Source: Candidatus Hodarchaeota archaeon
GTDB lineage: Archaea; Asgardarchaeota; Lokiarchaeia; Sigyniarchaeales; SOKP01
Direction: 5' to 3'
Assembly: GCA_048887225.1 (NCBI GenBank)
Contig: JBHLJY010000008.1
Location: 46,384 to 110,383 of the forward strand
Length of the DNA: 64,000 bases
The notes below the pieces were generated by a model that saw only the letters and a program-made list of their open reading frames with translations, made no database searches and was not told the DNA's origin. A program made the position numbers and the translations under genes. The first letter of the stretch is position 1, and each line of letters opens with the position of its first letter. Shown piece after piece: positions 12,082 through 16,001 of the stretch.

Positions 12082-13221
12082 TTAAACTCTTTCCAACTCC
12101 ATTTCTTGAATCGCTTTTCCAGACCTGAAAGGAATATCATCAACAGATTCCCCTGGACAATATCCGAACTTTTCGTTAAAAGCTTCGTTTAAAGACATGA
12201 AGTATAAACTTAAAGGCAGATTCTGAGGGCAGTTATTATAACAGTTACCACATTCAACACAGCGATCCGCAACATGTGCTATTCTTGTCAATTGATAAGT
12301 TTCTTTGTTTATAGTTTTTTCTTTTCTTTTTTTCGTGAGAATGCAATCTACACAATAACAAACTGGGCATCCACGGATACACATACCACACATCGTACAA
12401 TTCAGAAGTCTCTCAATTTTTTCTTCTTGAGGAACTTTTGCCCATTCTTCAAGGTCCTTCTTTCTTTTCTCTTTTGCCTTTTCAAGAATTTCATTCATTT
12501 TTGCTGTGTGAGTGTCTTTTATATCATCAGGTAATAGCTTTTTATCAATCTTAGATTTTTCTAGGAGATCATTTCCCTTGTCAGAATAGACTTTTAATAT
12601 AATCTCATCAGAATCAATGGGTATTCCAATATCACTTACGCTCAAATCTGCAATAACAGGTATTTTTCTTGTGCATCTTAAGCAATTATCAGAGGGTTGA
12701 ATATTTAGTTCTTTGGTCTTTCCATCAGCAAATTTAAAAATTAGTCCGTTATCGCCAATTTTTTCTTTTATTATTTTACTGGGATCGATCTCCTTCATGT
12801 TCTTTATTTCTCGACCAACATTAATAGCCATTCCCCTATCCTCAATTCCAATAATAAAAAGATTGTCTAGCTCAACTTGTTTTATTTTTGCCAATTCAAT
12901 TAAAGCTCGTGTATCGCAGGGACGAGCAATAAGACCTATTTTTGCGTTTTTAGCACCTTCTACCGATTTATGTAAATATTTCGCAGCAGAGTCAGTTCGA
13001 GCATAGCCGTATGCAATAAAATTATATAGAGGGAAGCTATTAGCATCTCCTAATTTATCAATTAATTTAGGTGTAATCGTAAATCTATCAACAGCATTCG
13101 TTTTTTTATCTACTCTTTCTTGTGCACTGATAATTTTATCTACGATTTTTTCCTGCAATAATGAGCCTAATAACTTAGGAAAATCTTCACTTTTTATAAG
13201 ATATTCTGCTATTGGGTCCAA
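12082..13221 (-). CDS. FdhB/FrhB-family subunit with C-terminal 4Fe-4S dicluster
   Basis: ARPCD.RAL.EL.K..Q, CLRC, CTMCGMCIRGCPVCYC..C, CVECGNC...CP. Confidence 0.8.
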   Translation of the reverse strand: MDPIAEYLIKSEDFPKLLGSLLQEKIVDKIISAQERVDKKTNAVDRFTITPKLIDKLGDANSFPLYNFIAYGYARTDSAAKYLHKSVEGAKNAKIGLIARPCDTRALIELAKIKQVELDNLFIIGIEDRGMAINVGREIKNMKEIDPSKIIKEKIGDNGLIFKFADGKTKELNIQPSDNCLRCTRKIPVIADLSVSDIGIPIDSDEIILKVYSDKGNDLLEKSKIDKKLLPDDIKDTHTAKMNEILEKAKEKRKKDLEEWAKVPQEEKIERLLNCTMCGMCIRGCPVCYCVDCILTKKRKEKTINKETYQLTRIAHVADRCVECGNCYNNCPQNLPLSLYFMSLNEAFNEKFGYCPGESVDDIPFRSGKAIQEMELERV

Positions 13222-13289
13222 ACGTTTCCAACTCTTAATAATAAATTTTTATCTTAATTTCTAACTAATAATATTTAATTAATTTTTTT

Positions 13290-13363
13290 TATGCGTTAAT
13301 GGAGCTTCCATTTCTTCTACTAAGTTCTCATTTTTTTAACTTAGTTTCATTAGCTAACACATA
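13290..13363 (-). promoter_or_regulatory. SECIS element, eukaryote-like, in the 3' UTR of mvhD
   Basis: Lower stem UAUGUGUUA/UAACGCAUA; AUGA-A ... A-GA-A core; upper stem ACUAAGUU/AACUUAGU; A-rich loop; begins immediately after the stop of a gene with in-frame UGAs. Confidence 0.85.
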
Positions 13364-13825
13364 TTATGTTTTTGCCTTTTCTTTGGCTTTTTTCTTTTCA
13401 GGTGTGCCGCCTTTGGGTCTTAATGGGCTAGGACCTAATTCTCTTATCACTTTATCGAATTTAATTGCAGTTTGCTGAAATTTTTGACCCTCTGCTGCAG
13501 TGCAATATCCCATCATTATTCGCTTTTCATTTAATCCAATCGACTTTAAAACTTCTTTTATGTATTCGACTTGACGGTAAGCGAAGTAATTTCCCGTCTC
13601 ATAATCGCACTCTTTAGGGTATCAAGCAATTATCATCACACCATCTGCCCCGCGCCCAAATGCTCTCATAATGACATCAGCACCAACTCTACCGGTACAA
13701 GGGACTAAAACAGATCTTATTGAATCGGGATACTGTGCTCGAATTGTTCCTGCCATATCAGCAGAACCATAACCTCATTTCCAGCATAAAAATGCTATAA
13801 TTTTAATATTTTCATCTTTTGCCAT
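13364..13825 (-). CDS. mvhD: MvhD/VhuD [2Fe-2S] subunit, selenoprotein (U17, U68), 153 aa; absent from the ORF track
   Basis: MAKDENIKIIAFLCWK-U-GYGSADMAG...VPCTGRV...GADGVMIIA-U-YPKECDYETGN; TGA at 13775-13777 and 13622-13624; GAGGTG RBS upstream; TAA at 13364-13366. Confidence 0.93.
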
Positions 13826-15807: not shown

Positions 15808-16001
15808 TTTTTTCACTTTTTTAGCTATAACCTATTATTATAATTCTAAAATAATATTGATGATTAAGTTAATAGTTCTATCATTATAAAAATAATCGTT
15901 ATAAAATTTCACGATAATATTAATATTTTAAATGATAGGATCCATCAAAACTAACAAAAAAAAAATAAAGAATATTTAGAGAATAATATAAAATTTTATA
16001 A

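Follow-up and report, generated by a model that had tools for sequence, protein, structure and literature searches.

The textbook "missing link" between selenocysteine decoding in archaea and in eukaryotes is the lokiSECIS. As originally described (Mariotti 2016, Mol Biol Evol 33:2441, PMC4989117), it always has an AUGA before a stem of 9 bp, a loop of 11 nt, and a GA after the stem; the first five bases of the loop are mostly A, and its last base is an "ultraconserved" G that usually comes after an A. In the same study, HdrA and VhuD were always encoded in tandem with a very short spacer, and each such pair had a single element after VhuD, possibly for up to six UGAs over ~2 kb (PMC4989117). 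Under the name "type I eSECIS-like" elements, the class now spans >400 Asgard genomes (Huang, Xiao & Zhang 2024, ISME J, PMC11227280). In their main texts, these papers describe the core, the upper stem, and the apical loop; a lower stem and an internal loop, neither further specified, appear in addition in the 2024 paper.

The hdrA-mvhD Locus and Its In-Frame UGA Codons

The window analyzed here (i.e., the whole stretch of 64,000 nucleotides) contains two adjacent genes on the minus strand, hdrA (15816-13843), which encodes heterodisulfide reductase subunit A, and mvhD/vhuD/frhD (13825-13364), which encodes a protein of the FlpD family. Under translation table 11, hdrA is split into two ORFs, in which Pfam identified FAD/NAD-binding and 4Fe-4S domains; the frame is open once two TGAs are read through (TGA = U), with a probable GTG start at 15816 and a TAG stop at 13845-13843, and the gene is homologous to a second hdrA in the same genome. 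The first in-frame UGA of hdrA (15750-15748; VCR-U-GINIAG), at a position that is also U in the paralogue on contig C1, is located ~2.4 kb upstream of the SECIS core. The second (15195-15193; DDCSI-U-ILGP) occupies the canonical HdrA Sec position, near residue 200 (Mariotti 2016, PMC4989117). The mvhD gene (153 codons and a TAA stop; Pfam PF02662 FlpD, E = 6.6e-34) starts 17 nt past the hdrA stop, and the spacer contains a GGTGA; a gap of 17 bases therefore leaves no space for a second signal between the two genes. Translation of mvhD identified two further in-frame UGAs, at 13777-13775 (FLCWK-U-GYG) and at 13624-13622 (MIIA-U-YPKEC), and this two-TGA pattern is common to dozens of orthologues. 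All four UGAs are found at conserved Cys/Sec positions, those in mvhD being Cys-equivalent, and are located 0.27, 0.43, 1.8, and 2.4 kb upstream of the AUGA of an element that begins 1 base past the mvhD TAA stop. An earlier sequence-only reading of this DNA, which placed a SECIS in the mvhD 3′ UTR of a gene pair with several UGAs, is thereby borne out as to both the position and the UGAs.

The minus-strand genes between 18479 and 10051 encode, in order, an aldehyde:ferredoxin oxidoreductase (18479-16548), a 4Fe-4S protein (16547-16002), HdrA, MvhD and, downstream of the SECIS, an FrhB-like/4Fe-4S protein (13221-12082) whose gene starts ~70 nt past the SECIS, another 4Fe-4S protein (12019-11255), and GAPDH (11052-10051). 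This neighbourhood looks like a redox module joining aldehyde oxidation to an HdrA-MvhD electron-bifurcating unit. Among sequencing runs, the stretch was found only in DNA contigs from sediment metagenomes, and no RNA run was listed for it.

A lokiSECIS with a Third Helix Downstream of mvhD

The element is 74 nt long (13363-13290, minus strand), and each part drawn in the sequence-only reading was found where that reading had placed it. The MFE structure (−16.3 kcal/mol) and the centroid predicted by RNAfold for 13363-13290 are both a three-way junction, created by the side hairpin as the reading had proposed; 200 dinucleotide shuffles of the element averaged −6.8 ± 2.3 kcal/mol (z = −4.15), and none was as stable. 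In the MFE fold, the 5′ strand of helix I (UAUGUGUUA, 13363-13355), which starts 1 base past the TAA stop, pairs with the 3′ strand (UAACGCAUA, 13298-13290) over 9 bp, including one U-G; helix I is presumed to be the C helix of a kink-turn. The 5′ internal loop GCUA (13354-13351), which has a length of 3-6 nt among relatives, makes up the bulged-strand loop together with the AU of AUGA. The AUGA core motif itself (13350-13347) is invariant across all aligned SECIS (alignments A1 and A2), and its GA would form tandem G.A/A.G pairs with the GA of the core (13317-13316), which is preceded by A13318; at the core position after helix II, relatives have GA or AA.

Helix II has nine positions in the MFE fold (5′ strand, 13346-13338; 3′ strand, 13326-13318). 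Its first position, A13346 opposite A13318, is non-Watson-Crick, and the remaining eight (13345-13338/13326-13319) are perfectly paired. The sequence-only reading had described a helix II of 8 bp; the eight perfect pairs are indeed present, but they belong to the published stem of nine positions, in which the A.A is included. Among 91 relatives, 34 likewise have a non-Watson-Crick first stem position, consistent with the 3b.3n position of a k-turn. The apical loop (AAAAAAAUGAG, 13337-13327) has 11 nt, with seven As followed by UGAG, and ends in AG; A14-18 and G24 are invariant in alignment A1. By sequence alone, the element is compatible with a non-Watson-Crick AUGA/GA quartet at the foot of helix II and with apical As that stay unpaired.

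On the 3′ side of the core, a linker (AGAA, 13315-13312, as delimited by the alignment of relatives) leads to helix III, the side hairpin AUGG(A)-AGC-(U)CCAU (13311-13299), which has a conserved G-C in its loop and adjoins the 3′ strand of helix I with no spacer. The first linker base is a C in 81 of 92 relatives and a purine only in the hdrA-mvhD subclass to which this element belongs. In four orthologues (L027, L057, L072, and L079), the side hairpin is conserved only in its outer 4 bp (AUGG/CCAU), and the conserved helix III loop is one of 5-6 nt containing GC, not the 3-nt AGC loop of the MFE fold. The orthologue group formed by these four loci and the window has AGAA, GGAA, or AGUA as its post-GA linker and, unlike the family consensus, an A.A at the first stem position.

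All core rules published for lokiSECIS apply to this element, i.e., AUGA, a 9-position stem (here A.A and 8 Watson-Crick pairs), an 11-nt loop with its As and its AG, GA, and the location relative to the genes. A pattern scan with these rules identified it as one of ~7 sites in the 3.27 Mb genome. R1, a covariance model of the 35-nt core alone, scored it at 43.2 bits (E = 5e-6), and the element was the only R1 match on the 110-kb contig C8 at E ≤ 10. In the window, no Rfam family reached its gathering score; at 13100-13500, no Rfam SECIS family reached E ≤ 10. Rfam SECIS models likewise had no match to the Loki genes in the original study (Mariotti 2016, PMC4989117). The AUGA…GA core and the A-rich apical loop support the assignment as a eukaryote-like SECIS made from sequence, but the accompanying claim of a structural variant does not hold, since the 9-position stem, the 11-nt loop, and the use of one SECIS for both HdrA and VhuD are those of the published lokiSECIS; stem length and multi-UGA service are stated in PMC4989117, and both were therefore already published. 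The element in the window thus adds an ordinary member to a signal family that is already known. We conclude, with high confidence, that it is the SECIS of a polycistronic hdrA-mvhD mRNA from an Asgard archaeon of the Lokiarchaeia type and an orthologue of lokiSECIS, the full form of which is a three-way junction and probable k-junction.

Other SECIS and Sec Machinery in the Same Genome

The genome (3.27 Mb; 30.5% G+C; 49 contigs) encodes SepSecS (397 bits) and aSelB (249 bits) a few kb apart, as well as a selD that carries a Sec codon. No tRNA-Sec (RF01852) was found above the Rfam cut-off in the assembly, which may reflect the limits of the model or an assembly gap. One 103-nt tRNA-Sec candidate on contig C1 was rejected as an intron-containing tRNA-His.

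By pattern scan and R1, we identified ~10 SECIS in this genome. The upstream ORFs of seven of these were inspected, and all carry in-frame UGAs; they comprise a second hdrA-mvhD pair, selD, PrxL, an AhpD-like gene, a VhuU-like fragment, and several small ORFs that are multi-UGA, and one further SECIS site is located behind another two-UGA mvhD. All ~10 share one plan, in which GA is followed by a short linker (usually with C first), a hairpin of 3-6 bp, and then directly by a strand complementary to the sequence located 3-6 nt upstream of AUGA. The genes selD, PrxL, VhuU-like, and AhpD-like contain a single UGA each, and their SECIS nevertheless carry the arm; the arm is therefore not an adaptation to multi-UGA recoding, contrary to the link between the side hairpin and the recoding of several UGAs that had been suggested from the sequence of this locus.

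Several of these genes deserve separate mention. Two adjacent small multi-UGA ORFs on the plus strand (C21:1900-2731) each precede a separate three-way SECIS, with cores at C21:2361 and C21:2665; two adjacent UGAs occur in the first ORF (HAD-UU-ADNMEK), and the second is a Cys-rich frame of ~85 codons in which as many as eight UGAs occur, part of them perhaps outside the true coding region. On the plus strand of contig C18 (L003:3194-3567), a frame of 92 codons, with a start codon a few codons in, contains a C-x-x-U redox motif (AKCKP-U-FSHF) and is followed by a three-way SECIS; it is AhpD-like by eye only, and an AhpD-like family is absent from the archaeal selenoprotein families named in the Asgard SECIS papers cited here. 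The SECIS of selD/SPS (C2:205415-205497) has the ordinary 9-position stem and 11-nt loop (i.e., type I); the selD elements of Loki and other Asgard archaea were described as a distinct, mostly type II form (Mariotti 2016, PMC4989117; Huang 2024, PMC11227280).

Covariation of Helices I and III among Related SECIS

R1 matched all 81 genomes of the same family (f1) and none of 19 genomes from other families of the order. We collected 99 distinct SECIS with their flanks from these 81 genomes, picked by core score alone, and folded them with only helix II and the core fixed. A junction uniting helix I, helix II, and one hairpin was formed by 77 of the 99, as compared to 20% after shuffling of the flanks. 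A hairpin starting ≤6 nt from GA was present in 91 of the 99 (~92%), as compared to 27% of shuffles, which overturns the description of the extra arm as a local variant; the helix III loop contained a G followed by C or U in 98%, as compared to 33% after shuffling. This classification replaced a first one, with long flanks and free AUGA/GA pairing, that was too noisy (54/99 vs. 15%).

In alignments from two further covariance models, helix I was paired in 90% of cases, with double changes in all five pairs, and helix III in 97.5%, with double changes in all four pairs; as the structure guided these alignments and the 99 sequences are all related members of one family, the statistics overstate the independence of these changes. 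Controls in which the pairing partner was slid by 1-3 columns showed 41-51% pairing, as compared to 93-96% for the proposed structure, and the shuffle tests, which were carried out on unaligned sequences, agree with the pair counts from the alignments. Two other alignments were not used for these counts: in a MAFFT alignment of 97 extended elements (A2), helix III was present in two registers, and alignment A6, which had gaps inside the core, was left out.

These elements could also be read as ordinary two-helix SECIS with a large asymmetric internal loop, in which the bases of helix III are single-stranded and conserved as sequence. Helix III is short, often 3-4 bp, and C-G predominates among the outer pairs of the commonest class, so that part of the signal could be sequence conservation. 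However, the outer stems include 33 distinct types, among them some that differ completely and yet stay complementary (AUGG/CCAU, AGGA/UCCU, CCUU/AAGG, ACGG/CCGU, and UGCC/GGUA), and the pair types vary at all four positions of helix III (CG60/AU21; CG50/GC23; GC27/CG24/AU7; AU21/UA12/GC10), making an unpaired helix III highly improbable.

The arrangement of the helices bears on another explanation, in which helices I and III form a separate 3′-end element (a terminator, a processing site, or an mRNA-stability hairpin) with no role in Sec insertion. This explanation draws on the location of the SECIS, always at the end of the transcription unit, on a U-run after helix I in many relatives, and on published models that need only the core, the upper stem, and the loop. 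Helix I, however, encloses the core rather than following it, and the spacing is tight: helix III is located within the 3′ strand, 2-4 nt past GA and adjoining the 3′ strand of helix I, and in 57 of 77 cases helices III and I are separated by no more than 1 nt. The conserved G-Y in the helix III loop is likewise something that a hairpin serving only stability would not need, and at the locus studied here helix I is followed by an A-run and not a U-run. Moreover, helix I is required in eukaryotic SECIS as well. We therefore consider a separate 3′-end element unlikely. The side hairpin is, as judged from these comparisons of related sequences, a conserved and covarying third arm of the whole signal class and not a local oddity.

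The Junction behind mvhD in Other Asgard Families

Outside family f1, R1 gave no match except one false positive in genome G114. This reflects the narrowness of the model, because protein-guided searches found SECIS in five other families. A search with the MvhD protein identified two-TGA orthologues in many other Asgard families, and the mvhD 3′ UTRs outside f1 were scanned for AUGA or GUGA cores with stems of 7-10 positions. Behind two-UGA mvhD genes, the side hairpin and a covarying lower helix were found in all three f2 loci and all four f18 loci, as well as in 2 of 5 (f21), 1 of 3 (f10), and 1 of 3 (f15) loci of further families. In 10 of the 20 mvhD loci outside f1, this simple scan identified no SECIS within 350 nt; some of the genes are fused, in ORFs of ~590 aa. 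Three f21 loci, L122-L124 (G135:C1, G178:C584, and G163:C99), contain the two-TGA MvhD domain inside a frame of ~590-595 aa, an apparent fusion; up to 350 nt from where the MvhD match ends, no SECIS was found. Occurrence of the junction behind mvhD in f2, f10, f15, f18, and f21 indicates that it is general to Asgard hdrA-mvhD SECIS and not restricted to one lineage.

These data also bear on whether the lower helix and the side hairpin arose by chance or as a one-off variant specific to this locus, perhaps for several UGAs. The element does have peculiarities of its own: in the hdrA-mvhD subclass, the linker has a purine instead of C, and the hairpin has 13 nt rather than 11. In addition, R2, a model with the commonest class as its seed, missed the hdrA-mvhD subclass of the window at E ≤ 0.01. 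Against this stand the frequency of the arm among the 99 relatives, as compared to shuffles, its presence behind single-UGA genes of the same genome, and its presence in the five other Asgard families. A one-off variant, already refuted by the conservation data, is left with next to no probability.

A Proposed Role for the Junction and Candidate Binding Factors

The AUGA/GA core would form a kink-turn, as in eukaryotic SECIS, and by its strand topology the fold is probably a k-junction, in which coaxial stacking of helix III on helix I would stabilise the kink. The near-invariant G-Y of the helix III loop would be exposed as a contact for an Asgard SECIS-binding factor or for aSelB, and the element with its factor would bring SelB.GTP.Sec-tRNASec to ribosomes that have reached a UGA 0.27 to 2.4 kb upstream. 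Asgard archaea have no SBP2 according to the literature. As a tentative proposal, to which we give clearly less than even odds, Asgard SECIS may be k-junctions in which helix III pre-forms the kink without SBP2 and the G-Y loop docks a factor, the arm having been lost in eukaryotes; the docking factor could be aSelB, a ribosomal L7Ae/L30e-type protein, or an uncharacterised protein, candidates that share the tentative standing of the proposal as a whole. Of these, L7Ae had already been put forward as a candidate k-turn binder in the sequence-only reading.

The one test of Loki SECIS function in the literature counts against Sec insertion by such elements and may also bear on this proposal. When a Loki vhuU SECIS was placed in Methanococcus maripaludis, activity did not exceed background (21 vs. 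22 mU/mg), and the RNAfold energy reported for that construct was only −6.9 kcal/mol (PMC11881835). This value is close to the energy of helix II alone in the present folds, which suggests that helices I and III may have been missing from the construct.

One gene in the genome is annotated in a way that relates it to the Sec system. Directly past SepSecS and ~6 kb from aSelB, a gene of 227 aa (C4:46197-46880, plus strand) belongs to NCBIfam NF045535 ("Sel_Asgard, putative selenocysteine system protein"). Its AF2 model is confident (pLDDT 92.9) and has a C-terminal half that resembles a generic four-helix bundle, and fold searches (Foldseek, VIA-align) gave no informative match and none that was L7Ae-like. 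The Sel_Asgard family is present in 122 of 201 genomes of the phylum and in most of the Sec-using families sampled; it was found in none of five genomes of f18, a family that has Sec-type mvhD and three-way SECIS. As a SECIS binder, Sel_Asgard is a candidate, a lead and nothing more. No family match was obtained for a 459-aa ORF located before SepSecS.

If the three-way junction is the functional unit, search models, which now ignore helices I and III, could be made much more specific, and the full element of ~74 nt would suit reporter and binding work. The published "minimal" lokiSECIS would then be incomplete, which could partly explain the failed heterologous test, and the evolution of Sec decoding would gain a step, the loss of the arm on the way to eukaryotes once SBP2 took over. 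The conserved G-Y loop also represents a concrete mutational target in the search for the missing SECIS-binding factor.

Comparison with Known Systems

Eukaryotic SECIS of form 1 (Rfam SECIS_1 and relatives) consist of two helices with a longer helix II, whereas the element described here has a shorter upper stem (9 positions), an apical loop fixed at 11 nt with a terminal G, and a third helix in the 3′ strand. The VhuD SECIS of Methanococcales and Methanopyrus (AUGA, GAC/AAC; Mariotti 2016) have after GA a C, which is also the commonest first linker base here; they differ in keeping the methanogen GAA_A bulge and G-C clamps.

In the k-junction of the TPP riboswitch, the third helix and the C helix form a coaxial stack (Wang, Daldrop, Huang & Lilley 2014, NAR 42:5322, PMC4005666). 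Its strand topology matches that of the present element, in which helix III is located in the 3′ strand between GA and helix I; here too the third helix adjoins the C helix, so that coaxial stacking would be possible, a likeness that is topological only. The linker of 2-4 nt between GA and helix III has no counterpart in the TPP k-junction, and the coaxial geometry is therefore only inferred, with indirect support from the close spacing of helices III and I in 57 of 77 elements. The two also differ in function, the TPP k-junction being a ligand sensor and this element a recoding signal.

Among SECIS, the core of the element is identical to that of lokiSECIS (Mariotti 2016; type I eSECIS-like, Huang 2024). 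An internal-loop hairpin or a junction is mentioned in none of the main texts of Mariotti 2016, Huang 2024, Sun 2021, and a 2026 review, and a full-text literature search found nothing relevant linking SECIS to "three-way junction" or "k-junction", one entry in the reference list of PMC11227280 aside. The lower helix and side hairpin may already be drawn in the supplement of Mariotti 2016. What is new, in comparison with the published lokiSECIS, may be these two helices as an overlooked feature of the whole family.
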